A DNA stretch of 63,689 nucleotides, from the IMG/VR virus record IMGVR_UViG_3300029951_000027. One strand, 5' to 3'. Source of the DNA: a virus. Numbering within the stretch: the stretch's first letter is position 1; each line of letters opens with the position of its first letter. This document shows positions 1,663 through 63,689 of this stretch, one piece after another. Both the position numbers and the translations under genes were made by a program. A model generated the notes under the pieces. That model was not told the origin of the DNA, did not search any database, and saw nothing but the letters and a program-made list of their open reading frames with translations.

Positions 1663-4040
1663 AACGACCCCCGCAATGGGGCCGGCTACCTGAAGAGTTG
1701 AAGGCGCGGGCGCAATGGTTGCTCGCTACGCCGGATGCACAGGGTGACCTCAAGGTTCCGACAGGATTGGATGCGGCAGGGCGCCCGGTGCGCTGCGATG
1801 CGCACGCGCCTGCCAACTGGCTGTCGTTTGACGTAGCGTGCGGCGCGGCGCTGCACTACGGCCTAGCCATCGGCTATTGCGTGTCTGCGGACGACCCGTT
1901 TGTCTGCATTGACTTGGACGTCAAGAACCAGACCAACTGTGCTGACCCGGCCAAGTGGACGCCTTCGGAGGTGGTGCAGGGCCACGCAATGATCATGGGG
2001 ACGTTCGAGTCCTACACCGAACGCTCGCAGTCGGGCCAGGGCTTGCACATCTGGGTCAAGGCGCCGGGCTTCGGCCAGGGCGTCAAGCGCGAGTTTGTTG
2101 AAGTCTACTGCCAGGAGCGCTTTCTGGTGTGCACGGGCGACATCGTGCTCGACAAGCCTATTCGGGCGGACGAGACGGTGTGCCAGATGGTGCTGGCGCT
2201 GGTTAACCGCATACGCGATGCGCAACAGGACGACAAGATCGAGTTGGTTGAGCTTGATGAAGAGCTCACGGACTCGGATGTCGTTGAGTCGCTTACGGCA
2301 CAGTCGAACGGCGACAAGTATGTCGAACTGTGCAAGGGCGATTGGCAGGGCATGGGCTTTCCCAGTGGGTCCGAAGCCGACCTAGCCCTGCTGTCCATGC
2401 TGTGCTACAAGAGCGCAGCGAACTCACAAGTGCGCCGGTTGTTCCGCATGACCGCGTTGGGCAAGGACACGCGCAAGAACAACAAGATCAACAAGAACGA
2501 CAAGTACATTGACCGCACGTTGAAGATTATCCGTGCGCGCCAGGAACGCGAGCGTGTAGCGAGTGAGCACGGGCAGGCCCAGGCACAGGCGTTGATAGCG
2601 AGCTTGGCGCCTGCTGGTGCCCCGGCTGCGGGGGTTGCTGGGGTAGTACAGGCAATGGGGCACGCTGCGCAGGCAGGGCAGTCCGAAGCGGGGGCCGTTG
2701 CGCTCGATTGGCCGCCCGGACTTATGGGTCAACTGGCACAGTTCATTTACCACAGCAGCCCGCGCCCTGTGCGTGAGGTGTCCATCGTGGCCGCTATCGG
2801 CCTGCTGGCTGGGATTCTGGGGCGCGCATACAACATCCCCGGTTCTGGCCTTAATATGTACGTCGTCTTGGTGGCCCGTAGTGCGGTGGGCAAGGAAGCC
2901 ATGCACAGCGGGGTGAGCAAGATCATTGCGCAGTTGTCGCAGATGGGGCAACCAAAAGTCCAAGACTTCGTAGACTTTAGCAAGTTCGTCAGCGGCCCAG
3001 CGCTCACTAAGGCTGTGGCAATGAAAACGTCGTTCGTTAACGTAAGCGGTGAATGGGGTAAGACGCTGGCGGCCATGGCTGGCGACGAGAACAAAACGAG
3101 TGGGCCGTTGTCGTCGTTGCGTACAGTGATGACTGACCTATACCAGAAGTCTGCGTTCGGCTCAATCGTCGGCGGCATGGCGTATAGCGATAAGGAAAAG
3201 AACGTCGCGAGTGTGAACGGTGTGGCCTATAGCATGATTGGCGAGACCACACCCAGCACGTTCTACGAGTCATTGACCGAAAGCATGATGGCTGACGGGT
3301 TCTTGTCGCGCTTCCTGATCGTTGAGTACGATGGGGACCGGCCACCCATCAACTACAACCCAGTCAACTTTATGTCGGTCGACGTCGCTAATCACTTGGC
3401 AACGCTAGTCGGAGCCGCAGTTGACCGGTCGCACGGGTGCCAGTTACTCAGCGCCGCCGATGCGGCGGTTGAAGCCATGCACGCATTCAACCTCGAGTGC
3501 GACATGCAGATCAACAGCACGCGCACCAACGAGCCGCATCGACAGATGTGGAACCGGGCGCACCTGAAGATGATGCGACTGGCTGCACTGGTTGCAATTC
3601 CGGACAACCCTGCGTTTCCTAGAATTGAAATACACCATGTGCAATGGGCTTTGCAAGCCATCCGCAACGACATTGCCATCATGACGCGGCGCCTTAACGA
3701 AGGCGATGTCGGCATCAGTGACCACAGCCGCGAACAGAAGCTCCAAACGTACTTCAGTGACTACCTCACTCAAGAAGTCCCCGACAGCTACAACGTCCCC
3801 AAGGCGCTGAAAGCGAACGGCATCATCCCGCGCAAGTACCTCCAGATCCGGAGCCAGAAGACGCCTTCGTTTGTGCAGCATCCGCTAGGCGCCATCCGCG
3901 CACTTGACGAAGCGCTGCGCAACATGGTCGACAGTGGGTACCTGGGGGAGATCAGCAAGGACAAGCTTGCGTCCGAATACGGGTTTAGCGGCAAGGCGTA
4001 CCGCATACTTGAACTTTCAAAGGCGTACAGGAAGCATTGA
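1659..4040 (+). CDS. bifunctional primase-polymerase (AEP) / DUF3987-D5-type helicase
   Basis: AEP motifs CIDLDV and SGQGLHIWV are present, with a PriCT-like segment GFPSGSEADLALLSMLCYKS and a large C-terminal helicase-like domain. The start was set at ATG 1659 (ATGA coupling) rather than 1617. Confidence 0.8.
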   Translation: MKRPPQWGRLPEELKARAQWLLATPDAQGDLKVPTGLDAAGRPVRCDAHAPANWLSFDVACGAALHYGLAIGYCVSADDPFVCIDLDVKNQTNCADPAKWTPSEVVQGHAMIMGTFESYTERSQSGQGLHIWVKAPGFGQGVKREFVEVYCQERFLVCTGDIVLDKPIRADETVCQMVLALVNRIRDAQQDDKIELVELDEELTDSDVVESLTAQSNGDKYVELCKGDWQGMGFPSGSEADLALLSMLCYKSAANSQVRRLFRMTALGKDTRKNNKINKNDKYIDRTLKIIRARQERERVASEHGQAQAQALIASLAPAGAPAAGVAGVVQAMGHAAQAGQSEAGAVALDWPPGLMGQLAQFIYHSSPRPVREVSIVAAIGLLAGILGRAYNIPGSGLNMYVVLVARSAVGKEAMHSGVSKIIAQLSQMGQPKVQDFVDFSKFVSGPALTKAVAMKTSFVNVSGEWGKTLAAMAGDENKTSGPLSSLRTVMTDLYQKSAFGSIVGGMAYSDKEKNVASVNGVAYSMIGETTPSTFYESLTESMMADGFLSRFLIVEYDGDRPPINYNPVNFMSVDVANHLATLVGAAVDRSHGCQLLSAADAAVEAMHAFNLECDMQINSTRTNEPHRQMWNRAHLKMMRLAALVAIPDNPAFPRIEIHHVQWALQAIRNDIAIMTRRLNEGDVGISDHSREQKLQTYFSDYLTQEVPDSYNVPKALKANGIIPRKYLQIRSQKTPSFVQHPLGAIRALDEALRNMVDSGYLGEISKDKLASEYGFSGKAYRILELSKAYRKH

Positions 4041-4092
4041 CTCGGTGTGGCTGTTAAGTTAACCTAACGGCTACACCACACAGGAGCACCCG

Positions 4093-4632
4093 GTGAGCAA
4101 TACGGAGAATCAGATGGTTGACATCCCTCGGCAACCCCCGGCCACGCTGGAAGACTTGAAGCGGTGGCAAGCCCTCAAGGTGGAGATCGCGCGGCTGACG
4201 CCCACGGCTCTCATCCTTCAGGAGAAGGAACTGCGTGCACGGTTGGTCGCGTCGTTCTTCCCCACCCCCAAGGAAGGCACCAACAAGTTCCCGCTCAACA
4301 ATGGGTGGCAGCTCAAGTTCACCAACACCATCAAGCGTGAAGTGGACTACGGCATGTTCCAGGCCATGGCCGACAAGTTCCGCGAGGCCGGCATTGGCGC
4401 CGCAGCGTGCATCCGCCAGAAGTGGGAGCTCGAGAAGAAGGTGTACAACACCCTGACGGCCGAACAGCAACAGGTCTTCGACCAGTGCCTGACCATCAAG
4501 CCCGAGTCGCCGCAGCTGGAAATCGAACTTCCGGCCGCCGAAAAGAAGAAGCAAGAAGCGATCGCTTCGCTGGCCGCCGCGCAGGCGACGGGTGTGGTCA
4601 ACAACCCGCCCGTGCCGGGGATCCAGCTGTGA
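4093..4632 (+). CDS. hypothetical protein
   Basis: The 179-aa ORF has a GTG start with AGGAG about 6 nt upstream. Confidence 0.6.
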   Translation: MSNTENQMVDIPRQPPATLEDLKRWQALKVEIARLTPTALILQEKELRARLVASFFPTPKEGTNKFPLNNGWQLKFTNTIKREVDYGMFQAMADKFREAGIGAAACIRQKWELEKKVYNTLTAEQQQVFDQCLTIKPESPQLEIELPAAEKKKQEAIASLAAAQATGVVNNPPVPGIQL

Positions 4633-16356: not shown

Positions 16357-16384
16357 CAAAGGCGCTTCGGCGCCTTTGTTTTTG
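16357..16384 (+). terminator. Rho-independent terminator
   Basis: The stem CAAAGGCGC-TTCG-GCGCCTTTG is followed by TTTTT. Confidence 0.6.
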
Positions 16385-16426
16385 ATTGCTCCGCAACCCG
16401 CCTCACGGCCACTTATCGGAGTCTGC

Positions 16427-17170
16427 ATGCAGCTGAACAGTCAGCCCATGGAACACATTGATGTCGCGTCGGGAGACGTACTTGATGTCCATTCTATCTT
16501 CTACACCCTGCAAGGTGAAGGCCCCTTCACCGGCCGCCCCGCAGTGTTCATTCGCTTGGCGGGCTGCAACTTGCAGTGTCCAGCCTGTGACACGGACTAC
16601 ACCAGCGGGCGTGAGAAGCGAAGCGTGACCAGCATCATTGCCGGCGTACACAACGCGGCACCCGACAGGGCAGCGCGACCACTTGTGGTCATCACGGGCG
16701 GCGAGCCTTTCCGTCAAAAGATCTACGGCCTGTGCCACGACCTTCTGCGCGAAGGCTACACGGTGCAAATCGAAACGAATGGCACGTTGCCGCCACCCAA
16801 CCCGGTATTCGGAGATCTCTGTTCGACCGACTTGACGGACGAGAACGTGATCTTCATCGTATGCAGCCCCAAGACGGGTCGCGTCAATCGATACCTGGAA
16901 CCACTGGTGGCCGCGTACAAGTACGTTCTCGATGCCGACAGCGTGAACGATGACGACGGTCTGCCGATTCTGGCCCTGGGCCACACGGCCCACCCGCACG
17001 TCGCCCGGCCGCCTGTTGGCTTCCTGGGGCCGGTGTACTTGCAGCCGGCCGACATGCAAGATGAGGCACTGAACAAGCGCAACCGTCAAGCCTGTGTCAT
17101 CCTCGCTATGAACGCACCGGACCGTTTCACGGTTCAGCTTCAGACACACAAGATCCTCAATCTCGAATAA
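16427..17170 (+). CDS. queE: 7-carboxy-7-deazaguanine synthase (radical SAM) QueE
   Basis: The CNLQCPACD (CxxxCxxC) and GGEP motifs are present. ATG 16427 follows GGAG. Confidence 0.85.
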   Translation: MQLNSQPMEHIDVASGDVLDVHSIFYTLQGEGPFTGRPAVFIRLAGCNLQCPACDTDYTSGREKRSVTSIIAGVHNAAPDRAARPLVVITGGEPFRQKIYGLCHDLLREGYTVQIETNGTLPPPNPVFGDLCSTDLTDENVIFIVCSPKTGRVNRYLEPLVAAYKYVLDADSVNDDDGLPILALGHTAHPHVARPPVGFLGPVYLQPADMQDEALNKRNRQACVILAMNAPDRFTVQLQTHKILNLE

Positions 17171-17179
17171 GGTCACCAC

Positions 17180-18580
17180 ATGTGTTCAATCATTGGTGCA
17201 GTCTTGTACCGTCAAAGCGGGCTGCCTTGGGAATTGGAATCGCTGCTGCGTGTCACCTGGGGTAACAGCCTGCGCCGGGGTCGCGACGGGCGCGGGTTTG
17301 TGGCTCGTACTACCGATATCGAAGGCCGCGTCAAAATAGGGTTGAAACGGTCCGTCGTTCGGCGCGAGCATTTCCCGGACATCTACCCGCACATCCCGCC
17401 GTTCACCACGTCGTTTGACATGGTGGGCAACCAGCGGGCGGAGCCGACTACCGAGTTTGTCCAAGACAAGCAAGAGTTCGATCAGCAGCCGTATTCGCAC
17501 AGTGGTTGGCATGTTGTGCACAACGGCACTATCGCCAACGACAAAGAGCTGCGTACGGGTGACGTGCCCACAAGCATCGACAGCGCGGCTATCGTCGAAG
17601 TGCTGGCAAGCGTGTCGCCGAACACAACGGCCTTCGCCAGTGCGATCCGGAAGTTGAAGGGTTCGTATGCAATCCTTGCGATGCATGACAGCCTGCCGGG
17701 CGTCATGTTTTCAGCCTGTAACTACCGCCCTATCTGGTACGTGCAGACGCCAAGCGGCTTTGTGTTTGCTTCAGAACGCGGTGCATTCCCACAAGGTTAC
17801 GTTCCGCAGATGCTGCGACCGTACAGCGTGGCGACGTTCGGGTGCACGGGCACGGTCGAACGCGTTGCGCTGCTGGAACCTGTCGTTGACGGCGAAGCCC
17901 GCAAATCGCTCAAGACAGCGCTGGTCGTGTGCAGCGGCGGCCTGGACAGTGTGGTTAGCGCGGCGGCCATGCAGAAGCGGGGCTATGAGCTTCACCTGAT
18001 TCACTTTCAATACGGGTCGCGTGCGCAAACGCCCGAGCTAGAAGCGGTGCGCAAAGTGGCAAAGCACTTGGGGGCTGACTTCGACATCGTGCCTCTGCCG
18101 ATTTACCGCAAGCAAGACAGTCCGCTCCTGGACCCCGACAGCAAGGTGGCAGGCGGCGAGGCGGGCGCCGAATTCGCGCACGAGTGGGTGCCGGCACGGA
18201 ATACGGTGCTGCTCGCCATGGCGGTCGCATTTGCCGAAGCCAGGGGCTACGAAACGATCGTGCTGGGGAACAACCTGGAAGAAGCCGGGGCGTACCCCGA
18301 CAACGAACCGGAGTTCATTGCCCGCTGGAACGATCTGCTGCCGTTCGCTGTGGGTGACGGCAAACGCATGCGCATCGAGATGCCTGTCGGCAACATGATG
18401 AAGCACGAGATCGTCGCACTGGGGCACGAGTTGGACGCGCCCATGGACATGACGTGGTCGTGCTACAGGGCCGGGGCGCTGCACTGCGGGTCGTGTGGGC
18501 CGTGCTACATGCGTCGGAAGGCGTTCGCGATCAACGGGCTTCCCGAAGTGATCAACTACCAGGATGAGCAAGATGTATAG
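17180..18580 (+). CDS. queC: glutamine amidotransferase-QueC fusion (Gat-QueC)
   Basis: The N-terminal MCSIIG is a Cys2 Ntn amidotransferase signature. The QueC PP-loop CSGGLDS is present, with a C-terminal Zn site C-x8-C-x2-C-x2-C (WSCYRAGALHCGSCGPC). Confidence 0.85.
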   Translation: MCSIIGAVLYRQSGLPWELESLLRVTWGNSLRRGRDGRGFVARTTDIEGRVKIGLKRSVVRREHFPDIYPHIPPFTTSFDMVGNQRAEPTTEFVQDKQEFDQQPYSHSGWHVVHNGTIANDKELRTGDVPTSIDSAAIVEVLASVSPNTTAFASAIRKLKGSYAILAMHDSLPGVMFSACNYRPIWYVQTPSGFVFASERGAFPQGYVPQMLRPYSVATFGCTGTVERVALLEPVVDGEARKSLKTALVVCSGGLDSVVSAAAMQKRGYELHLIHFQYGSRAQTPELEAVRKVAKHLGADFDIVPLPIYRKQDSPLLDPDSKVAGGEAGAEFAHEWVPARNTVLLAMAVAFAEARGYETIVLGNNLEEAGAYPDNEPEFIARWNDLLPFAVGDGKRMRIEMPVGNMMKHEIVALGHELDAPMDMTWSCYRAGALHCGSCGPCYMRRKAFAINGLPEVINYQDEQDV

Positions 18581-19019
18581 ATCGACTAAGACGTATGGGC
18601 ATGACCTGGGCCTGTCCGCCTGCTTCCGCCAGTGGCGAGCTCAGTCGCACTGCAACCTTTTGCATGGGTACGCGCTGGCGTTTACCATCACGTTCGACTG
18701 TGACAAGCTTGACGAAAATGGGTGGGTGATGGACTTTGGCGCACTGAAGCCTGTCAAGACGGAGATCGAACGGCTATTTGATCACACTGTGCTTGTTGCG
18801 TGCGATGATCCTGAACTGAATCGATTCGTGGCGCTGAACAACGCCGGTATGATTCAGTTAGTCGCTGTTCAGCGCACGGGGTGCGAAGCTTTTGCCAAGC
18901 TGGTATTCGACAACGTGACCACATGGCTGCGCAGCTACCAGAAGGGTCGTGTGCGAGTGGTGTCGGTTGAATGCAAGGAACACGGCGCGAACAGCGCCAT
19001 CTACATTGGAGGCAATTGA
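18564..19019 (+). CDS. queD: 6-carboxy-5,6,7,8-tetrahydropterin synthase QueD
   Basis: The N-terminus (STKTYGHDLGLSACFRQW...HCNLLHGY) is PTPS/QueD-like. It overlaps the queC end, and the start could be 18564 or 18573. Confidence 0.8.
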   Translation: MSKMYRSTKTYGHDLGLSACFRQWRAQSHCNLLHGYALAFTITFDCDKLDENGWVMDFGALKPVKTEIERLFDHTVLVACDDPELNRFVALNNAGMIQLVAVQRTGCEAFAKLVFDNVTTWLRSYQKGRVRVVSVECKEHGANSAIYIGGN

Positions 19020-19600
19020 TGAACGCACCGTACGAGAAGCCGCCGACTGTCAATGAGCAGATTATCTATGACGTGCTGGCGCACCTGTGCGGCGAGAACC
19101 CCGAACGGGGTGGTCTGAAGGACACGCCGGCCCGTGTGGTCAAGGCGTGGGAATTCTGGACAAGCGGCTACGGCATGAACGCGGCAGACATCCTCAAGAC
19201 GTTTGAGGACGGTGCCGAGGGTTGCGACCAGATGGTCATTCGCAAGGACATCCCGTTCTACTCGCACTGCGAGCACCACATGGCCGCCATCTTCGGAACA
19301 TGTACCATCGCGTACATCCCGAACGGGCGTGTGGTTGGCCTGTCAAAGATGGATCGCCTGTGCGAGATGTTCATGCGCCGGCTGCAAGTACAGGAAAGAG
19401 CGACCAACCAGATCGCCGATGCGATGATGGAGCACCTCATGCCGACCGGCGTGGGCGTGTACATCAACGCCCGTCATATGTGCGTGGAATCGCGTGGCGT
19501 GCGTAACGGCAACAGCGCGACAATCACGACGGCACTGCGCGGTGCGTTCCTCAACGAGCCGGCAACAAGAGCAGAGTTTCTCGCGGCAGCTCGCGGGTAA
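19019..19600 (+). CDS. folE: GTP cyclohydrolase I FolE
   Basis: GLKDTPARV and the YSHCEHHMAAIFG active-site region are present. The ATG overlaps the queD stop. Confidence 0.85.
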   Translation: MNAPYEKPPTVNEQIIYDVLAHLCGENPERGGLKDTPARVVKAWEFWTSGYGMNAADILKTFEDGAEGCDQMVIRKDIPFYSHCEHHMAAIFGTCTIAYIPNGRVVGLSKMDRLCEMFMRRLQVQERATNQIADAMMEHLMPTGVGVYINARHMCVESRGVRNGNSATITTALRGAFLNEPATRAEFLAAARG

Positions 19601-19609
19601 AATGGCGCC

Positions 19610-20533
19610 ATGAACCTCTACTGCGCTGCTGTCTACACGAATAACTATAGAGCCGGACAGCGGCAGTACCAGCATTTCAACGAGCGTGAACGCGAGTGTG
19701 TCGACGGTGTTCCCCACATTCTCGAATCGTTTCACTACGTGGGCAAGCAGAGTTTCGTTGACGATATGCGAAAAGATGGAGCGAAGATCTTCCTGGACTC
19801 CGGCGCCTTCTCGTCCTTCACCCAAGGCGTTGCGCTCGACGTGCGCGTGTACTGCGATTACATCAAGCGCAACATGGATATCATTCGCTTCGACGATGGG
19901 GTGATGATGGCGTCCGTGCTCGATGCGATTGGCGACCCATTGGAGACGTACCGCAACCAGCTTTGGATGGAAAGCCTGGGCGTGCGCCCGCTGCCTTGTT
20001 TCCATGCCAACGAAGACGAACGGTACCTCGAACACTATGTCAAAAACTACGAGTACATCACACTCGGCGGTATGGTGGGTGCCAGTTCGAAGCAACTGAT
20101 GAATTGGCTGGACCGTATCTGGGACCGGTACCTTGTGGACGGCGCAGGGCGCCCGCGCTGCAAGGTGCATGGGTTCGGTATCACAGCCGTGCCAATTATG
20201 CAGTCATACCCTTGGTGGAGCTGCGATTCGTCGTCGTGGATTCAATCGACCTCGTTCGGCACCATTGTGACACCTGACTGGGGCCCGATCGCAGTGAGCG
20301 ACAAGTCGCCCAGCCGGCACGACGCCGGCCAACACATCACGACGTTTAGCGAAGTGGAGCGCCAAGCCATAATTGCCAAGCTGGCCGAGCAGGGCTACGA
20401 CTGGGAGCGTCTTGCTACGGTGTACCAGTCGCGGGCGGCCTTCAATTTATGGGCATACTGCGAGTTGAACAAACGAATGAACGTTGAGAACGACTACACG
20501 CAGATGACGCGCGTCAAACAGGAACTGTTCTGA
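19610..20533 (+). CDS. dpdA: DpdA-type (TGT-like) DNA guanine transglycosylase
   Basis: The 307-aa protein has a FLDSGAFS motif that I recall from DpdA. It is the last gene of the deazapurine operon. The family assignment rests on recollection and context. Confidence 0.7.
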   Translation: MNLYCAAVYTNNYRAGQRQYQHFNERERECVDGVPHILESFHYVGKQSFVDDMRKDGAKIFLDSGAFSSFTQGVALDVRVYCDYIKRNMDIIRFDDGVMMASVLDAIGDPLETYRNQLWMESLGVRPLPCFHANEDERYLEHYVKNYEYITLGGMVGASSKQLMNWLDRIWDRYLVDGAGRPRCKVHGFGITAVPIMQSYPWWSCDSSSWIQSTSFGTIVTPDWGPIAVSDKSPSRHDAGQHITTFSEVERQAIIAKLAEQGYDWERLATVYQSRAAFNLWAYCELNKRMNVENDYTQMTRVKQELF

Positions 20534-47569: not shown

Positions 47570-48343
47570 TTATTCAAGATCTGGCAGCACAGGTACTGGA
47601 TAGCAGCGGCAGTTATAAATCTGCCCGGCGTGCGTGACCGATCCGTCTTCAAGCGTCGGCATCGTGTCCCACGCAATCACCTTGCCATTCATGGCTTTGT
47701 GTGATTCGCGCACGGTGGCGTCCATGCTGGTACGCCAGACGTAGTGTGTGACGCCGACATGAAGGCACCTTGATTGAACGAGGCCGCTGGCGGTGCGTGC
47801 CACCTCGGTACGGGCAATGAGGCGGGCGCGACTGAGAGTCACATCGCCAGTTTCGAGAATGTCCTTCTGGATCTCTTCTGCACGTCGCCCGGTTGCTAGG
47901 GCACCGAACGTAAGGTCATGCACTCGGGTCGCAGCGTCTTCAGGCAGCGACGTGATGAGATTAACGTTCTCTTCAAGGTACCGCCGCAGCCACTGCCCGG
48001 TCGGCGCCGTGCGCAGTTCGCGCTTCAGTGCATCGCCCATCTGCCCAGACAGCTTGAACCACCTGTTATCATCAACCTCGGCAATGCGGTTTACCATCTT
48101 GGCCGCCACAGACGTAGCCCAGGGCCTAATAGCAGTGCCGTAAGACCGTAGCACGCGCTGGAGCTCGTGCGAATCCTCGACAACGCCTCCCGGCGCCATA
48201 CCCTTGACAATGTGGTCAATCTGTTTCGCGAGCATGCGCAACGAGCGCATGTATTCGCTTTCCAAGCGTTCAGCCAGCTTGAACCGCTTGTGGGCCTCGG
48301 CCCTCAGCGCGGCGCTGGCGTAGTCGTCGCGGGTGCTGCGCAT
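47570..48343 (-). CDS. Mu F-like head morphogenesis protein
   Basis: The C-terminal NCRCYPVP motif and its position after the portal support the call. Confidence 0.75.
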   Translation of the reverse strand: MRSTRDDYASAALRAEAHKRFKLAERLESEYMRSLRMLAKQIDHIVKGMAPGGVVEDSHELQRVLRSYGTAIRPWATSVAAKMVNRIAEVDDNRWFKLSGQMGDALKRELRTAPTGQWLRRYLEENVNLITSLPEDAATRVHDLTFGALATGRRAEEIQKDILETGDVTLSRARLIARTEVARTASGLVQSRCLHVGVTHYVWRTSMDATVRESHKAMNGKVIAWDTMPTLEDGSVTHAGQIYNCRCYPVPVLPDLE

Positions 48344-49887
48344 TACTCGCTACCAGCGGCCCCAGGATCGGCGCTGGCGGGCTTGCTGGGGCCTGCGGCC
48401 TTGCCCTGCACCGGGGCTACCTTAGTGGTGCCCGTAGCCCCGGCAGCCGCCGCGCCGGGCGCCCCAGGCACGCCATCTTCAGGCACGCCATCTTCAGGCA
48501 GCGGCGGCGGCTCGTTCTCGGCCTCGGTGATCAGCTTGTCGGTAATTGCACCCCACACGCCAGTCTCTTCCGCCGACCGCTTCAGTTCGCGCAGTGCAGT
48601 CGGTTTGTCAACCAGCCCGACGCCTTCGGCGCTCGTCACGGCGCTGGTGATGCTGCTCGCGATCTCTGCCTTCTCCTTGGCGCTCATCTGCCACAGCGGC
48701 TTGAACTTGATGCTGACCGACTTGTGCAGGCTCACACCCTCCGACAGTGCCATGACGTGGTAGATCATGTTCACGCCGACATGCAAGTCGCGGATCTGCT
48801 TCTGGTGAACTCGGTCGTAGTAATTGCGAACGTCTGTTTCGCCGGTGTTGAAGCCCTTGGGTGACTGGCCGAACAGGCGCACCAGCGGGATCTCGGCCGC
48901 TGCGGAAACTTGTTCGCTGAACGACCCCAGGATGTCAGCAAGGCCGCTGAATGCCGTGTGAGACACGCCTTCAAACTCGTCTTTCGAGTCCATGACGGTC
49001 ATACCTTCGACACCTTGCAGCGACCGCATCATTTCGATGTACTTGATGAAGCCGGCATATGCATCGCCACCGGCCGCAACAAGCTCGCGCATGTTTTCGA
49101 CCTTGTACGTGCGAATGTACGCCTTGTACACCAACTGCGCGGCCCCGGTGGTGGCGCTGTCGAACGCCACCATGCGATCATACATGCGTTCGAGCACCGA
49201 GATGCCCCACATGTTTTCCATGATGCGCTGCCAGTACGGCAACCGGATCCCTTCCAACCGAATGACTCGGCTGTAGTGGATACGCATCATGGACAGCGCG
49301 GGCGCCTGCGCGGTCACGGAGTAGAACTTAGGGAGCCCGAGGTGCGGCCCCATCTCGGTCACGAGATCGTTCAAGGACGGTTCAACCATCCAACGGTCGA
49401 GCGTGATCAGGCCGCGGAACTGCCCCTTGCGAATCGACTGCAAGCGCAGCGGCGTAGCCGGGTCCTGCCCATCGATCAACATGACCACAATGGCGCCGCC
49501 GTACAGTCTGCTCCAGCGCACACCGTCATTGATGGCGTTCCAGATGCCCATCGACGTTCCGGCCTGCGTCAGCTGCTCCTGGTCTTCGGCGTCAACGTCA
49601 CCCTTGAATTCGATGCCTTCGCGGGTCATGTCGTCGGCAACTGAATCGATGACCGCACCAGCCATCCAACTACCCCGGTACGCCCATTCCAGCAATGTGC
49701 GATTGCGCGTGATGGGGTTGAACCCATAGGTCGCCGTCGACATGGGATTGTTTGCCCCTACCCCAAAGTTCTGCGGCAGGTTCTGAAAACTGTCGAGCGA
49801 CTTCTTGCGCGCAGCGTCGTCGGTTCGAAGCGCAGTCTTGGCAGCGCGTGCCACGGACTTCGAACGGGGCGGTTTTTGAGTTGTCAT
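48343..49887 (-). CDS. portal protein (DUF1073-like)
   Basis: 514 aa, directly downstream of the large terminase. The WAYRGSWMAGAVIDSVADDMTREG pattern is present. Confidence 0.8.
   Translation of the reverse strand: MTTQKPPRSKSVARAAKTALRTDDAARKKSLDSFQNLPQNFGVGANNPMSTATYGFNPITRNRTLLEWAYRGSWMAGAVIDSVADDMTREGIEFKGDVDAEDQEQLTQAGTSMGIWNAINDGVRWSRLYGGAIVVMLIDGQDPATPLRLQSIRKGQFRGLITLDRWMVEPSLNDLVTEMGPHLGLPKFYSVTAQAPALSMMRIHYSRVIRLEGIRLPYWQRIMENMWGISVLERMYDRMVAFDSATTGAAQLVYKAYIRTYKVENMRELVAAGGDAYAGFIKYIEMMRSLQGVEGMTVMDSKDEFEGVSHTAFSGLADILGSFSEQVSAAAEIPLVRLFGQSPKGFNTGETDVRNYYDRVHQKQIRDLHVGVNMIYHVMALSEGVSLHKSVSIKFKPLWQMSAKEKAEIASSITSAVTSAEGVGLVDKPTALRELKRSAEETGVWGAITDKLITEAENEPPPLPEDGVPEDGVPGAPGAAAAGATGTTKVAPVQGKAAGPSKPASADPGAAGSE
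48466..48500. repeat. 15-bp tandem duplication (2.3 copies) inside the portal C-terminus
   Basis: aggcacgccatcttc occurs at 48466-48480 and again at 48481-48495, then a partial copy follows. It encodes EDGVP-EDGVP. Confidence 0.8.
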
Positions 49888-49919: not shown

Positions 49920-51392
49920 CTAGCGCTTTGCCAGGGCGGCCCAAGTGCTCAAGTTTGATTTGACTAGCAGTCGGAAGGCTTCTGCGGATGCGTCAACTTG
50001 GTCATCATGCGCAGTGCCAGTTCCAAACGCTTCCAGCTCGCTGAGGTACGCGTCGTTCCACGGCCCTTCCAGCAAGTCAACGGCTCCTGCCTGCCATACC
50101 GCCGCGAAAGGATCTGCTCGGACCTCTTTGTCGCCAGAAGCACGTTCAATATCTGTGATATAGCCGGCGAGGAATGTTGCATAGCTTTCCGCCTGATCTT
50201 TACCGGCTTGGCCGGGGTCTTGACACAATCCAATCTTGCACCCGATGCCGTCCGTGCTTGCGATGTTCTTGATCATCTTGCGGACATCGTGCGCACGCTT
50301 GCGCTCGTGTGCCACATGCATGACCACAAACCGTCCGTTCTTCAGCTGCGCCAGCTTCACCCCTGCCGTCCAGTCGGGGTCCTTTGCGGCTTCGCTTTCT
50401 TCGGTGGCAGCCAAGTCCCAGCCACGAACGATCTTGGCAATCTCGTCGCGGGGCGGCATGGTCTGAATGATGCGGACATCGGTCCGCTTAAAATACATGC
50501 CGTTACCCTTGACAACCTTCCAGTTGCCACCCAGCAGGCGCTCGCGTTCGACGCGAGACTGGGCCATCAAGTTAGCCTTGTAATCCGGGTCAGCCGCCAT
50601 CAGCGCTTTGTTGTCGCTTAGCTTGGCCGGGATAAATGTTAGCGACTTGGGGCGGACTTGATCTTCGTGGTCGTCTGCAAGCTCGGGCCTACCGTGCTTG
50701 TCGATTAGCTCTTGCTTGCTGTCGCCCCAATAAATCTCTTCGCCGATGCGAACGAAGTAGCGCAGCACGCCACTCCGGGCTTCTATCGGCAGGCCGGTTT
50801 CTTGGTCAATCCACCATGCGATAAACTTGGCAACCCACGATTCGGCATCAGGATTGCACGTCGCGCGAATGTAAGGCTTGACACCGCACATGCTGCGGTT
50901 CCGGGTCATCATGTAAAAGAACTGGTACTCTGTGAAGTGAGTCAGTTCGTCAAACATGATTAGCGGGATCTGCGAGCCCTGCCACTGCTGCACAGTGTTC
51001 TCATGCTCGAGGTGGGACATCTTAATGTATCCACCCTTTTCCCAGCGCCACGTATGGTCGCCTTCGCGCGGTGTGCCGTTGATTAGGTTGTAGAGCTTCT
51101 TCGACTCATCCCACAGGCCGCCAGGGTTAGTGATCTGCGGGGTGGTGCGGCGGAAGAATACCGCATTGAACTCGGGGTTGGATGTGATGTGCCGCAACGG
51201 CTCCATCAGAAGCGCCCACGACTTACCCCCGCCAGCAGCCCCTCCGTAGATGACAAGATCCGCGGCTGAGGCTAGAAACTGCTCTTGCGGCCCTTCCTGG
51301 GGTCGAATGATAATTAGTTCGGCGGTCTGCTTGGCTGCCGCCGAAGTGGGGCTGCGTACAGGCGCCGCAACTTCTTCAGGCGCAACTACCAT
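49920..51392 (-). CDS. terL: terminase large subunit
   Basis: Walker A is GGAAGGGKSW. The size and its position upstream of the portal support the call. Confidence 0.85.
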   Translation of the reverse strand: MVVAPEEVAAPVRSPTSAAAKQTAELIIIRPQEGPQEQFLASAADLVIYGGAAGGGKSWALLMEPLRHITSNPEFNAVFFRRTTPQITNPGGLWDESKKLYNLINGTPREGDHTWRWEKGGYIKMSHLEHENTVQQWQGSQIPLIMFDELTHFTEYQFFYMMTRNRSMCGVKPYIRATCNPDAESWVAKFIAWWIDQETGLPIEARSGVLRYFVRIGEEIYWGDSKQELIDKHGRPELADDHEDQVRPKSLTFIPAKLSDNKALMAADPDYKANLMAQSRVERERLLGGNWKVVKGNGMYFKRTDVRIIQTMPPRDEIAKIVRGWDLAATEESEAAKDPDWTAGVKLAQLKNGRFVVMHVAHERKRAHDVRKMIKNIASTDGIGCKIGLCQDPGQAGKDQAESYATFLAGYITDIERASGDKEVRADPFAAVWQAGAVDLLEGPWNDAYLSELEAFGTGTAHDDQVDASAEAFRLLVKSNLSTWAALAKR

Positions 51393-60515: not shown

Positions 60516-61529
60516 TCAGTTATTGTAGATGCGCCAGTTGTCTTGCGACACCTGATAGGCGTAGCCGCCTTCGAGTTGAGCCGAAGTGGAGTACGAACGG
60601 CTGCTCGGTTTGGTGAACGTCACGCCCGCGCCTGCTGTGATCGTGACGACGCCAGCGCCGACCTGAGACCAGTACAGGAGCGTTCCCGCGGGAAACGCAA
60701 CCGACGAGTGCGGCGGGATCGTGGCCGCGATTGCCGAGGCGTTGTTCAGGTCGACCTGCTGGCCGGCGTCGGTGAGCGCGAACGTGTAGGTCGTGCCGGT
60801 CTGGGCGTTGTCGGCCTGCACCGTCGCTGCCGCCGTCAGCGTAGTGACGCCGTTCGCGGCTGCCGTGATCGCGGCCTGCTGAGTCGCGCCGTCGCTCAGG
60901 TTCGCGAGTGCGAGCGAGACGTTGCCGCTAGCGTTCGGCGACTGGCCGCCGACAGTGATGACTTCGCCCGTGTTGCCGTCGATCTTCTCGATGGACGTGC
61001 CGTTGTCGACGACCTTGTCGCCGACGAGCCAGTTGATGCCCAGCGATGTGCCAGCCGTAGCGACAGTCCAGAAGAAGCCCTTGTTGCCGGCCACGATGGC
61101 AGGCGTGTTCGTGGTGGCGTTGTACGTGCCCTGGTAGTTCAGCGCGCCGACGATCGCGGCCGGAAGCTGGGCGACAGGAACCTTTCCGGTACCGTCGAGC
61201 CCCGCAACACCGTTGGCGACGCCCTTCTGACTGGCGGGCAGCGCTGCATTGGCCGTCGCAGTGACCGCCGCCAGCGGCGTCACCAAGTTTGCATTGTAGT
61301 CGCTGGCTTGGCTAAGAGCGGTGATACCGCCGCCCCCCGCAGCCGTTTCAAACCCTGTGCCAGCCTTATTGACGCGGTAAATGACGCGCGGCGAAGCGTT
61401 GGGGTCATAGAATTCAGCTCGTGGCCCCAGAGCCAGCTGATTCGCGTTGGGTGTCAGGCCGGCAAAGTTCACAGGGCTGCCATCGGCATTTGCAACCGCG
61501 ATGCGAAGCAGATTGTCAGAAGTGAGCAT
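60516..61529 (-). CDS. tail fibre protein
   Basis: The KGVANGVAGLDGTGKVPVAQLP motif is typical of phage fibres, and the sequence is Gly/Ala/Thr-rich. Confidence 0.7.
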   Translation of the reverse strand: MLTSDNLLRIAVANADGSPVNFAGLTPNANQLALGPRAEFYDPNASPRVIYRVNKAGTGFETAAGGGGITALSQASDYNANLVTPLAAVTATANAALPASQKGVANGVAGLDGTGKVPVAQLPAAIVGALNYQGTYNATTNTPAIVAGNKGFFWTVATAGTSLGINWLVGDKVVDNGTSIEKIDGNTGEVITVGGQSPNASGNVSLALANLSDGATQQAAITAAANGVTTLTAAATVQADNAQTGTTYTFALTDAGQQVDLNNASAIAATIPPHSSVAFPAGTLLYWSQVGAGVVTITAGAGVTFTKPSSRSYSTSAQLEGGYAYQVSQDNWRIYNN

Positions 61530-61593
61530 GATGCACCTGGGTTGTGTGACTAGCGCATTATGGCCTTTGACGCAAGGGCTTGATACTTTGATG

Positions 61594-61624
61594 TCAAAAA
61601 TAAAGGGCGCTCAAGGCGCCCTTT
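61594..61624 (-). terminator. Rho-independent terminator
   Basis: The minus strand reads AAAGGGCGC-CTTGA-GCGCCCTTT followed by ATTTTTG. Confidence 0.6.
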
Positions 61625-61627
61625 CTG

Positions 61628-61774
61628 TTACTTGGTACTCACGCGCACCGCTGATACGACTGGCTGCCAATTGACACGCCGACGTCGCTTGCGCCGGGCC
61701 AGCCATGCAACCGCTTCGGTCCAGCCGAACATGATTGCCATGCCCAACCCGACCATTGCGAGGTCGTGTGCCAT
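61628..61774 (-). CDS. small TM peptide with poly-Arg anchor (48 aa)
   Basis: I read it manually as MAHDLAMVGLGMAIMFGWTEAVAWLARRKRRRRVNW.... It is below the ORF-track cutoff and has no clear SD. Confidence 0.3.
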   Translation of the reverse strand: MAHDLAMVGLGMAIMFGWTEAVAWLARRKRRRRVNWQPVVSAVRVSTK

Positions 61775-61781
61775 GGCCGCG

Positions 61782-62147
61782 TCAGCCGACCTGGACGGTC
61801 ACCGTCTGCGCGACGGGCTGCATGTTGGCCGGGGGCGGCACCGGCGTCGGGCTGGGGGCGGGTGCTGAGACGGTGCCGCTGTAGCTGACCGCCGCGCCCA
61901 GCGCCGCGCCCGTGCTGTCGACGGTCTGGACCGAACCCGTGAAGCCGCCGACCGGGATGTCGTCTGCGAAGACCAGCGTCGTCACGAGCGTGGACGAACC
62001 GTCCGGGTTTGGCGTCAGGGTGCTGGCGGAGACGGTGCCGGTGTGCTGTGCGCCTTCGCTGTCCACGACCGTGGCGTTGAAGCTGGCCGTGGTGACGCCA
62101 CTGGCGACGCTGGTGAGTGCCGCCACGATGAGGAGGGAAAGTTTCAT
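61782..62147 (-). CDS. secreted Thr/Ser/Val-rich protein with signal peptide
   Basis: The N-terminus is MKLSLLIVAALTSVASG, with AGGA upstream and a Pro-rich C-terminal segment. Confidence 0.55.
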   Translation of the reverse strand: MKLSLLIVAALTSVASGVTTASFNATVVDSEGAQHTGTVSASTLTPNPDGSSTLVTTLVFADDIPVGGFTGSVQTVDSTGAALGAAVSYSGTVSAPAPSPTPVPPPANMQPVAQTVTVQVG

Positions 62148-62207
62148 TTCAGGTTCCTAGCTAGGGAGTTGTGACCACACTTGACGCGGTGGCCTTGCGG
62201 TTTGTAA

Positions 62208-62358
62208 GGTGTCGAGCGCAGGAATCGAACCTGCCGCGAGTGTTGAATGGACTGTTGGTGCTTGCGCACAAGGCTGCCAGCCCTACAGCTACGCCGAACG
62301 CATGCCTTCTGACAGATGCCTGCGTTCGACCACTCGGCGCACCATTGCACCGCTCGAC
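62208..62358 (-). ncRNA. tRNA-like module: canonical T-arm and 7-bp acceptor stem, with a non-canonical 113-nt three-hairpin body
   Basis: The T-arm is GCAGG-TTCGATT-CCTGC (62234..62218). The acceptor stem pairs GTCGAGC (62358..62352) with GCTCGAC (62217..62211), followed by ACC. The interior folds completely into helices (see findings) but has no D or anticodon arm of standard geometry. Confidence 0.5.
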
Positions 62359-63346
62359 GAAATTGGATGGCCTTCTCCGTGCGACTTACGTCCACGGCGA
62401 GGCGGCCTATTACGCGCCTTCCTCAAGGGCGCGACACATCGGTGCCGGTTGCGGCCGGCGTCGTTCGGCGGATTCTGCTTCTCGACCGCTTTTGTCCGCA
62501 CGAACCTACCACGCATAACCCGGTGGCCTGTAGGCGGACTAATTTGGCGCGAGCACCGCCCAGCCCGTGACGCATGGTGGCAACTCGATCCCTCTCAGGA
62601 TTGGAGATTCCACGCGCTCGGTAACGCAGGTTCAGATGCAGTGCTCGCATAAATGTTACGGTGGACAGCCCACCCTTGGCGCTGCCGTGCCCATCACTGG
62701 GTGCGGGCAAGCCGCCCACCGTAACGTTCAATGAATGCTTTAGCAGAACGCCTCTTGTCGCATACGCAGATTGGTACCATCTACGCAGCCAAGCGACTGA
62801 CCTGAGCGCCTCCTCCAGAATCATGCCGGCAGCTTGGCCGGTGTACTTCCGGTTAATCTACCTTGCATGCCACGACGACCACTTACAGAGCGCGAAGCGC
62901 CCTGCTAAAGCATTCAATCTTCTCGAATTGTGAAAGAGCGGGTGTCACAGGGCGCTTCGTAGCCGGCGCATACTCGGCATTGCCCTGTGACGTGTGACTT
63001 GCGCCACCATGCGCGGCCTACTTGCATAGGCAGGTCGCAGGACATGTGCAAGCATGGCCCACGTATGATGCGATGTCCCAGATTTGTGATGGTCACCTAC
63101 CCCTGGGCGGGGTGTCCCGTGACGAGCTGGCCGGGCGTGCATCCTGTGAAGGCTGCGGCGCCAAGCCTACGGGCTGTTGTGCGATGGTGCTGGTTATGTT
63201 CTGTTGAAGTGCAAGGCGAATGCCCTTCGGCTTGCCGAGTACCCACCACGGTGCATAGCCGCCTAGTGGACACTCGCCTTGCGCTTCGTGTTGGTTGCAC
63301 TGTAAGCCGGTTAGCAGTACGGTGCAACTTGACGGCGGCAGGCTGA
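62359..63346 (-). ncRNA. candidate large structured non-coding RNA (family unknown)
   Basis: No protein-like ORF is present. Several 10-20 bp long-range helices contain G.U pairs, and GNRA loops are valid only on the minus strand. The block is co-oriented with its flanking genes, with no intervening terminator. Confidence 0.35.
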
Positions 63347-63520
63347 CTACTTCTTCTTGCTGGCCTGCGCCATGCGCGAAGCCTTCCTGCGCTCGGCTTC
63401 GATAGCGGCCTTGATGTCGCCCTTCGACTTGCCGGCGCCGGCGATATGCGGGCGGCGCAAGGACTTGCCCATCGCGGCGTATCCGTTGGCAGTGTGGACC
63501 TTGGTGAAGCGGCGGGGCAT
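63347..63520 (-). CDS. small basic protein (57 aa)
   Basis: I read it manually as MPRRFTKVHTANGYAAMGKSLRRPHIAGAGKSKGDIKAAIEAERRKASRMAQASKKK. AGGAG lies 9 nt upstream and G/C is strong at third codon positions. It is below the ORF-track cutoff. Confidence 0.55.
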   Translation of the reverse strand: MPRRFTKVHTANGYAAMGKSLRRPHIAGAGKSKGDIKAAIEAERRKASRMAQASKKK

Positions 63521-63562
63521 GGAGTGGCTCCTGGTTGGTTGCTGTGACCACGGTGTATCGGT

Positions 63563-63689
63563 CGTTCAGGCGTTGTGCCGGCATCAAGCTGTGGTACAGT
63601 TGCTGGACAACCAGGAGCAAACATGAGCGGCAATAGCTATCGAAGACGTCTTAAGAAGGCCGAACGCAAGGGCTTTGTGCAAGGCTGGC
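63563..63689. repeat. Terminal direct repeat copy B (identical to 1..127)
   Basis: Read directly. It contains the promoter-like site, RBS and first 67 nt of the gene that starts at 61. Confidence 0.95.

Follow-up and report, generated by a model that had tools for sequence, protein, structure and literature searches.

What kind of element occupies more than a kilobase of a phage genome without carrying a gene? We addressed this question in the 63,689-nucleotide (nt) stretch of viral DNA recorded as IMGVR_UViG_3300029951_000027 (the whole of it is called the window here), which our protein scans identified as a phage genome. Its minus strand holds a gene-free stretch of 1.2 kb at 62148-63346 (the block), for which a preliminary description, made from the letters of the DNA, had proposed a large structured RNA. 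The results showed that the block is non-coding, that its structure is kept by compensatory change in three lineages, that the RNA is the minus-strand transcript, and that it carries a boxA laid out as in ribosomal RNA (rRNA) operons together with a tRNA-shaped end. We propose to read the block as a modular cassette of non-coding RNA organised like an rRNA operon (rrn) in miniature, a view that we consider as easily right as wrong.

Coding status and conserved structure of the block

Relatives of the block were found through the proteins encoded beside it. The 57-amino-acid (aa) protein encoded upstream led to two full-length homologues, L001 (an IMG/VR contig, block at about 2236-3920) and L013 (a Logan contig, block at 892-2364), and the 121-aa protein encoded downstream led to a partial homologue, L026. 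Homology among the blocks is collinear yet patchy, and their size spans 1.2-1.7 kb.

We examined the open reading frames (ORFs) of the block. All ORFs within 62148-63346 overlap one another, the longest has 133 aa, and none matched Pfam at E ≤ 1, in line with the earlier statement that no frame here is protein-like. Public gene callers placed no gene in the block in nine contigs of this phage, nor in L013, and no ORF is common to the block homologues. The best-conserved 274 nt, which are 81% identical to L001, hold seven indels of 1-2 nt, and these frameshifts exclude a reading frame. The block is thus non-coding.

The dense long-range complementarity claimed for the block was borne out by stem counts. 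We counted five perfect Watson-Crick stems with 10 bp or more, whereas 200 dinucleotide shuffles averaged 0.95 and 51 further 1.2-kb segments of this genome averaged 1.12, with no segment exceeding 4. The longest stem of the block has 15 bp, while stems reached at most 13 bp in the shuffles and at most 12 bp elsewhere in the genome.

The long-range helix H1 (62732..62916, minus strand), described before as a pairing from 62916 to 62732, was found with a 5' arm at 62916-62894 and a 3' arm at 62754-62732. Its 23 nt are 87% complementary, with 15 contiguous Watson-Crick pairs, and it encloses a variable domain of 139 nt; across the homologues the helix has 18-23 bp and the enclosed domain 43-139 nt. 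The arm reads UGAAUGCUUUAGCAGGGC in the window and UGAACGUUUCAGGAUGCG in L013, each with a matching partner strand. Both sides have changed in 10 of 18 pairs, and 96% of cells are paired over the three homologues. H1 is the clearest case of covariation in the block. Two further elements behaved similarly. The P2 hairpin (63206..63287, minus; 20 bp) has an apical sequence, UGGUGGGUAC, that is invariant across all three homologues, and its stem shows both-side changes in 6/20 pairs, with G.U pairs of the window replaced by G-C or A-U. The H3 multi-helix domain (62549..62648, minus; outer stem GCGAGCAC/GUGCUCGC) has 28 predicted pairs, ten of them with compensatory change, and both sides differ in six of the eight outer-stem pairs; its unpaired motifs CUGAAC, ACCGA and CACGGG are conserved. 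RNAalifold on plain MAFFT alignments gave nine compensatory pairs in the 5' domain and ten in H3. A 5S-rRNA-like ancestry of H3 was considered and dropped after no model matched, and a pseudoknot of the P2 apex with the downstream linker was dropped as not conserved.

We then took H1, P2 and the H3 outer stem together, with arms chosen by hand at equal length since MAFFT had misaligned the H1 arms, a choice that biases the counts toward pairing. With the arms in register, 94.9% of cells were paired, compared with 23-42% when they were slid by 1-3 columns. Both-side changes occurred in 22 of these 46 curated pairs, and none of 500 shuffles reached any of five pairing measures. Together with the changes in the tRNA-like module described below, these compensatory changes uphold the claim of a structured RNA and indicate that the block is conserved as structure, not as sequence.

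The same helices bear on the strand. The curated helices contain 18 G.U as against 3 A.C appositions. This excess, the replacement of window G.U pairs by G-C or A-U in the relatives, and the orientation of the boxA and of the T loop indicate that the RNA is the minus-strand transcript, as had been proposed.

Other helices vary more between homologues. At the 5' end of the block, the P1 hairpin (63294..63328, minus; GUUGCAC...GUGCAAC) contains the pairing of 63328-63322 with 63300-63294 described earlier; of its 11 predicted pairs, all are kept in L001 and four are broken in L013. The remaining 5' domain (62995..63205, minus) is conserved with L001 to about 63068 and includes an invariant CCCC/GGGG hairpin at 63112-63100; many of its predicted pairs are broken in L013. 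The H2 hairpin (62652..62728, minus; AACGUUACGGUGG.../...CCACCGUAACAUU) came from a complementarity scan and corresponds to the pairing previously placed at 62725/62655, found here as 62728-62711 with 62669-62652. In L001 two of its pairs differ on both sides (C-G to G-C; A-U to G-C), and one more pair, mismatched in the window, is C-G there. H2 is not in L013, which speaks against one integrated fold. The proposed pairing of 62505-62495 with 62472 consists of 5+5 bp around one bulged U, but its 3' end falls at 62463, one base off, a rival GCGG/CCGC pairing exists and the helix is not conserved. Two GNRA tetraloops, GUGA and GCAA, had been cited as pointing to the minus strand; neither is conserved in the homologues, and nor is the CCCA/UGGG hairpin. 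Since whole modules come and go between homologues, the comparison favours a modular cassette over a single integrated "ornate" fold.

We searched Rfam 15 (4227 covariance models) at gathering scores and then at E ≤ 10 with permissive filters, on inputs of 2-2.7 kb. The window, L001, L002 and L013 returned only chance-level microRNA and small-RNA matches far below gathering scores. The block, which could not be assigned to a family by eye in the preliminary description, thus has no counterpart among GOLLD, ROOL, tmRNA, RNase P, riboswitches and introns, none of which was matched at E ≤ 10, and the 5S, 16S and 23S models found nothing in the block either. With the comparisons to GOLLD, ROOL, tRNA, tmRNA, YrlA, introns and RNase P all failing, the block appears to represent a new RNA class, of a general kind already known, outside every described family.

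The boxA layout and the tRNA-shaped end

An rrn-type boxA with its spacer lies at 62922..62939 on the minus strand (GCUCUUUCACAAUU; GCUCUUUCACAAUUCGAG). The motif has a single exact match within the window, and the test sequence GCUCUUUA followed by the spacer ACAAUU was found on the transcribed strand. The boxA of Escherichia coli rrn with its spacer is UGCUCUUUAACAAUUUA and that of lambda is CGCUCUUA, and the hallmarks of the rrn type are an extra U and an AUU-containing spacer (PMC2724277). The forms in the homologues are GCUCUUUCACAAUU in the window, GUUCUUUUACAAUU in L001 and GCUCUUUGACAAUU in L013; the motif is kept in the latter two amid divergent sequence, and in no other fetched locus.

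The surroundings of the boxA are also arranged alike. A hairpin (GUCACAGGGC/GCCCUGUGAC; 62944..62991, minus), already noted in the preliminary description as a pairing of 62991 with 62944 and found in the sequence, stands upstream of it. Its counterparts have other sequences, GGCCGAC/GUCGGCC in L001 and GACGGG..CCAC/GUGG..CCCGUC in L013. In all three homologues this hairpin, though its sequence differs, stops 4-5 nt short of boxA on the upstream side, where boxB stands in rrn leaders. On the other side, the 5' strand of H1 starts 8-11 nt past the ACAA of the boxA match (GCUCUUUNACAA) in all three, and 11 nt past it in the window (GCUCUUUCACAA). A boxA at a conserved position upstream of a long-range, covarying helix was thus found, as in the rrn type. 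In rrn operons, the element after boxA is boxC, part of the 5' strand of a leader-trailer helix of 25-40 bp, and in the current model boxA, anchored on the polymerase by NusB, retains the leader strand close to the RNA exit channel until the trailer appears (PMC10250234). The combination of boxA with a leader-trailer-like helix, which the first reading of the sequence had missed, is the most informative feature of the block, and the block appears to reproduce the rrn leader layout in small.

Two further observations concern this region. A perfect 12-bp alternative pairing, CGAAGCGCCCUG/CAGGGCGCUUCG, joins 62959-62948 with 62904-62893 on the minus strand of the window and would compete with the pre-boxA hairpin and H1, looping out boxA. 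It was dropped, being absent from L001 and L013 and probably incidental. In base composition, the 5' part of the minus-strand transcript (window 62950-63400) has more C than G (plus-strand GC skew +0.06 to +0.10), and the part of the block downstream of boxA has more G than C on the transcript. That the C-rich stretch preceding boxA would suit a Rho loading site is a speculative thought.

The 3' end of the block holds a tRNA-like module (62208..62358, minus) with an acceptor stem, a D-like arm, an "anticodon" stem with an insert and a T arm. The acceptor stem has 7 bp (GUCGAGC/GCUCGAC), the D-like hairpin is GGUGCA-AUGG-UGCGCC with GG in its loop, and the 5-bp "anticodon" stem GAGUG/CACUC carries a branched insert of about 90 nt (90-105 nt) in place of the anticodon loop. 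A 3-nt variable region leads to the T arm GCAGG-UUCGAUU-CCUGC with a canonical T loop, and the discriminator A is followed by CC. In this module, 98.6% of cells were paired, compared with 30-61% in slid controls, and both sides have changed in four of the seven acceptor pairs and one T-stem pair (5/23 pairs overall). The 7-bp acceptor stem, the 5-bp T stem and the UUCRANY T loop of canonical tRNAs are thus all present, with compensatory changes. The earlier claim of a tRNA-like end is confirmed by the acceptor, D-like and T arms, yet the module is not a tRNA. Default ARAGORN called no tRNA gene, and the Rfam tRNA model gave no match at E ≤ 10. Relaxed ARAGORN needs "introns" of 66-81 nt and gives each of the three homologues a different identity (Glu, Phe, Asp). 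We rejected a true tRNA on these grounds: there is no 7-nt anticodon loop, the detectors are negative and the anticodons differ between homologues.

A second tRNA-like module was found in L001, L013 and L026, between H3 and the conserved linker, with the T loop UUCGAAU and covarying acceptor stems. In L013 its D arm is typical of tRNAs with a long variable arm. A purpose-written module scan found no second tRNA-like module in the window; a candidate at 62648-62545 ending in CCA was rejected after the alignment showed it to be the H3 domain. The 3' module of L013 (2073-2222) has G3.U70 where the window and L001 have C3-G70. G3.U70 is the alanine identity pair, used by tmRNA too.

Conserved linker, distribution and genome context

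A conserved linker (62438..62544, minus) contains AAUUAGUC at 62544-62537, AAAGCGGUC at 62492-62484 and GACGCCGGCCGCAACCGGCAC at 62462-62442, the last with the invariant hairpin GCCGG-CCGCAA-CCGGC inside it. We considered a tag-peptide reading of the AAUUAGUC region, as in tmRNA, and dropped it after finding the frames not conserved. A 21-mer, GACGCCGGNCGCAACCGGCAC, which forms the hairpin GCCGG-NCGCAA-CCGGC, lies at window 62462-62442 (minus) and recurs in non-coding DNA of the otherwise unrelated loci L028 (4562-4582), L029 (2557-2537) and L051 (4319-4299), which are phage contigs and a Burkholderiales metagenome-assembled genome. In the window, L001, L013, L028 and L029, AAGCGGUC comes before it, and in L028 a real tRNA-Met lies 185 nt downstream of it. 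Since its stem is invariant, the 21-mer yields no covariation evidence and could be a protein-binding or DNA-level site. L029 also carries degenerate tRNA-like elements, at about 1975-1900 and 1760-1715 (minus strand of the locus), that ARAGORN did not call; they lie near sequence blocks common to L028, and include an acceptor-T-arm minihelix, GCGGGCU...GCCGG-UUCGAUC-CCGGC-AGCCCGC-U-CCA.

We searched for further copies of the block. When the blocks of the window, L013 and L001 were compared by BLASTN with 50,697 GenBank phage records, no homologue appeared; the lone match, of 40 nt (E=7e-5), fell within an annotated protein gene of a Pseudomonas phage. A scan of viral contigs with the downstream protein as query found nothing. 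Six DNA-pattern scans of viral contigs returned the L001 contig, plus L028 and L029, which share the 21-mer only, and the remaining matches showed no further similarity to the block. The metagenome scan returned the L001 contig alone. A genome scan with the 21-mer gave 32 matches, almost all within protein-coding sequence, with L051 as the one possibly relevant non-coding match; several of the matches encode ...KDAGRNRH, which we take to be the GRNR motif of diguanylate cyclases. The block family is genuinely rare in current data, with three lineages.

The homologues differ in what follows the RNA. In L001, an extra small signal-peptide ORF lies just past the tRNA-like module (3925-4095), and in L026 an extra hydrophobic ORF of 28 codons lies between the RNA block and the 121-aa homologue (about 440-530); the window has neither.

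On the minus strand of the window, the order is the 57-aa gene, the block, the 121-aa gene, a 48-aa gene and the first intrinsic terminator. On one side of a divergent intergenic region, the first gene encountered is the 57-aa basic-protein gene (63347..63520, minus). Its Lys/Arg-rich product matched nothing in Pfam and PHROG searches, and RNA binding by it is plausible. Its homologues form nine 90%-identity clusters. Those preceding the block in L001 and L013 both have 55 aa, whereas unrelated sequence follows the 55-aa homologues of L023 and L024, and ordinary genes follow the 56-59-aa forms of other phages. Contigs with homologues of this protein mostly carry ordinary genes at the place of the block, or end too early; the ordinary genes found there in other phages indicate that the block is not tied to the 57-aa protein.

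Downstream, the ORF list gives the 121-aa signal-peptide gene (62147-61782, minus) and the 48-aa membrane-protein gene (61774-61628, minus), and terminator prediction places the first intrinsic terminator at 61624-61602 (minus). No intrinsic terminator was predicted inside the block. As originally described, the block is co-oriented with its neighbours and free of terminators. L001 has the same downstream order of 121-aa gene, 48-aa gene and terminator. The 121-aa gene has a conserved leader (62148..62199, minus) consisting of a CCAC...GUGG hairpin and a palindrome, CCUAGCUAGG, over the Shine-Dalgarno sequence. This leader is 93% identical to that of L013 and is retained in L026 too. The palindrome is a perfect 10-nt one, conserved in three lineages, and lies within window 62170-62148 (minus), L013 ~2335-2358 and L026 ~575-600; it might serve as an operator or in the control of translation.

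The wider genome is that of a phage with two arms. Protein scans placed the large terminase at 49920-51392 and the portal at 48343-49887, both on the minus strand, which also encodes a small terminase, RusA, baseplate J and a tail-fibre-like protein. The plus strand carries a replication and nucleotide-metabolism arm with a DUF3987 primase-helicase-like protein, helicases, ligase, ThyX, MazG and a 7-deazaguanine synthesis cluster. The cluster (window 16376-20533, plus) comprises a QueE-like radical-SAM gene, an amidotransferase-QueC fusion, QueD (PTPS) and GTP cyclohydrolase I, and suggests, by its gene content, that the phage DNA may be modified. A 307-aa ORF after it has no Pfam match and could be a DpdA-type transglycosylase. 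One contig of 63.7 kb is 100% identical to the window over 61500-63689 and, with 17 more contigs carrying the same 57-aa protein, shows that the window closes on itself.

Proposed function, rival explanations and known systems

How might such a cassette work? RNA polymerase starting upstream of the 57-aa gene would co-transcribe the block and its neighbours. The boxA RNA, by analogy with rrn, would bind host NusB-NusE(S10) and turn the polymerase into an rrn-type antitermination complex, which would stop Rho from aborting the 1.2-kb untranslated stretch. As proposed for pre-rRNA, the complex may also hold the leader strand near the RNA exit until the H1 partner emerges. RNase P would cut at about 62358, RNase Z/E or exonucleases together with the CCA-adding enzyme would act near 62210, and RNase III would probably cut at H1. 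Such processing would release stable structured RNAs and an mRNA with a short leader for the 121-aa and 48-aa genes. The most likely roles of the product would be tRNA mimicry, as a decoy or platform for tRNA-binding host factors and tRNA-targeting defences, or an RNA scaffold of the GOLLD/ROOL type. The fuller form of this proposal, in which the phage has a "rRNA-operon without rRNA" that borrows boxA-NusB/S10 tethering and tRNA processing to make large, stable, tRNA-mimicking RNAs, is one we put forward tentatively and hold to be possible but doubtful.

Several observations weigh against the miniature-operon reading. The ninth base of boxA is A in rrn but C, U or G here, and the boxA lies about 400 nt inside the block, not at its start. 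In some contexts, moreover, boxA promotes rather than prevents termination. Promoter prediction over 61400-63689 gave none. The 3' module ends in ACC rather than CCA. The folding energy of the block is weak evidence, its thermodynamic stability being unexceptional: the mean z of 200-nt windows was -1.73 on the minus strand, compared with about -0.9 in controls drawn from sampled genome windows (p=0.055), and the whole block has similar folding energies on both strands. All collections scanned yielded three full copies and one partial, giving few independent covariation events, and with hand-picked helix arms in three sequences the pairing figures overstate certainty somewhat. The optional modules (H2 and the second tRNA-like module) fit a cassette and at the same time weaken an integrated fold.

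The rival that we take most seriously, though we consider it unlikely, is that the block is a long structured intercistronic leader that acts only in cis and makes no stable RNA: a nut-like antitermination or attenuation region setting the expression of the 121-aa and 48-aa genes and of the tail-fibre genes beyond the terminator. It would account for the boxA, a classic part of phage nut sites (PMC2724277, PMC10250234). The highly conserved leader of the 121-aa gene, with its palindrome over the Shine-Dalgarno sequence, fits it as well. So does the succession of promoter region, small basic-protein gene and boxA, which resembles pR-cro-nutR of lambda. However, covarying domains of 1.2-1.7 kb and modules with intact T loops far exceed what a nut site or attenuator needs, the block holds no terminator to antiterminate, and no boxB-type hairpin follows the boxA.

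The remaining rivals fare worse. A functionless, decaying remnant of a phage tRNA cluster or a captured piece of host rrn would explain why module content varies between homologues, why the second module of L013 has the D arm of long-variable-arm tRNAs and why relaxed ARAGORN names the modules "intron-containing tRNAs". Yet paired compensatory changes amid diverging sequence indicate that the structure is under purifying selection, boxA and a number of single-stranded motifs stay unchanged in divergent surroundings, and the anticodon assignments are inconsistent between homologues, which makes decay improbable. We give very little credence to a highly divergent GOLLD or ROOL missed by the Rfam models. 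Both of these RNAs are carried by phages close to tRNA islands, and tRNAs are sometimes found in the linker of GOLLD, so that the genomic habit of the block, phage-encoded, large and tRNA-linked, is the same; the 3' region of GOLLD, however, is described as universally conserved (PMC12286853). Neither the covariance model of GOLLD nor that of ROOL, with its multi-pseudoknot core, matched the window, L001 or L013 at E ≤ 10. To our knowledge, boxA and leader-trailer features occur in neither family. It is just as improbable that the block acts as DNA, as a replication origin, a packaging site or a phage attachment site (attP) with tRNA-gene fragments. Its many inverted repeats, its place beside a divergent control region and replication genes, and the invariant 21-mer hairpin and palindrome CCTAGCTAGG, which lack covariation and could be protein-binding DNA sites, agree with a DNA-level role. 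The G.U excess (18 vs 3) is nevertheless strand-asymmetric, boxA and the T loop are meaningful only in minus-strand RNA, both halves of the acceptor stem exist and covary while attP has only a 3' tRNA fragment, and an incomplete scan of the proteins showed no integrase. A coding role of the block, for at least one small or unusual protein, is scarcely credible: the extra ORFs of L001 (signal peptide, after the tRNA-like module) and L026 (28 codons, hydrophobic) lend it some colour, but frameshifting indels lie in the best-conserved part, no ORF is shared by the homologues, Pfam is negative and public gene callers leave the block empty.

Very few bacterial or phage non-coding RNAs longer than 1 kb with conserved structure are known, and the functions of GOLLD, ROOL and OLE are still open. 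The block adds an example unrelated to these three, with two mechanistic handles that the others lack: a predicted Nus-factor loading site placed exactly as in rRNA operons, and tRNA-shaped modules that predict cut sites. If the rrn analogy is true, phages can divert the host's machinery for chaperoning rRNA folding into making large RNAs of their own; if the block is a "rRNA-operon without rRNA", the phage would possess an RNA machine or decoy of a new class that hijacks ribosome biogenesis. Mimics of tRNA without an anticodon also bear on how phages handle host defences that target tRNA.

Among known systems, the block would work most like an rrn leader or spacer. In both, a hairpin is followed by boxA with the extra U and the ACAAUU spacer (GCUCUUUNACAAUU) and, within about 10-20 nt, by the 5' strand of a long helix; the helix closes over a looped-out structured RNA, and tRNA-shaped units stand further along the same untranslated transcript. 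Unlike rrn, the cassette is phage-encoded, H1 encloses a variable domain of 43-139 nt and no rRNA, no boxC is recognisable, about 400 nt of structured RNA and a protein gene lie ahead of boxA, and the tRNA-shaped units have no anticodon loops. The lambda nut region likewise has a phage boxA on a transcript downstream of a small early gene, and here too host Nus factors would presumably be recruited. The boxA of the block, however, is of the rrn type (CUUUN + ACAAUU) and not of the lambda type (CGCUCUUA), and its hairpin stands upstream; downstream there is no local boxB hairpin, H1 being long-range. No N-like arginine-rich protein was identified, the 57-aa protein having no family match.

With GOLLD and ROOL the block shares the nature of a large, multi-domain, phage-encoded non-coding RNA that is supported by covariation and linked to tRNA-type elements; its location in a phage next to such elements is that of GOLLD. 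It differs in its length (1.2-1.7 kb, longer than theirs), in having tRNA mimics in place of true tRNAs, in its boxA and in being very rare in databases. The tmRNA and YrlA RNAs resemble the tRNA-like module in the acceptor stem and canonical T arm, the GG in the D-like loop, the replacement of the anticodon arm by a long extension and, in L013, the G3.U70 pair. The ARAGORN tmRNA search and the Rfam tmRNA models gave no match, however, and the insert of only about 90-105 nt has no tag frame, conserved frame or pseudoknot series. For YrlA, cmscan reported no such family at E ≤ 10 from a library in which the presence of the YrlA model is unconfirmed, and no Ro60/TROVE protein was found among 47 window ORFs scanned with Pfam and PHROGs, a partial proteome that includes seven spurious block ORFs. 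YrlA RNA, moreover, ends in a Ro-binding stem and not in an acceptor stem. Processing signals that resemble tRNAs also occur in longer transcripts, as in the mascRNA of MALAT1, the tRNA-miRNA units of gammaherpesviruses and the stable RNAs of the T4 tRNA cluster. The MALAT1 and gammaherpesvirus cases are eukaryotic or viral-eukaryotic and none has a sequence relation to the block; what the block would share with them is a non-decoding, tRNA-shaped module within a longer RNA, at which RNase P and RNase Z could set the ends.

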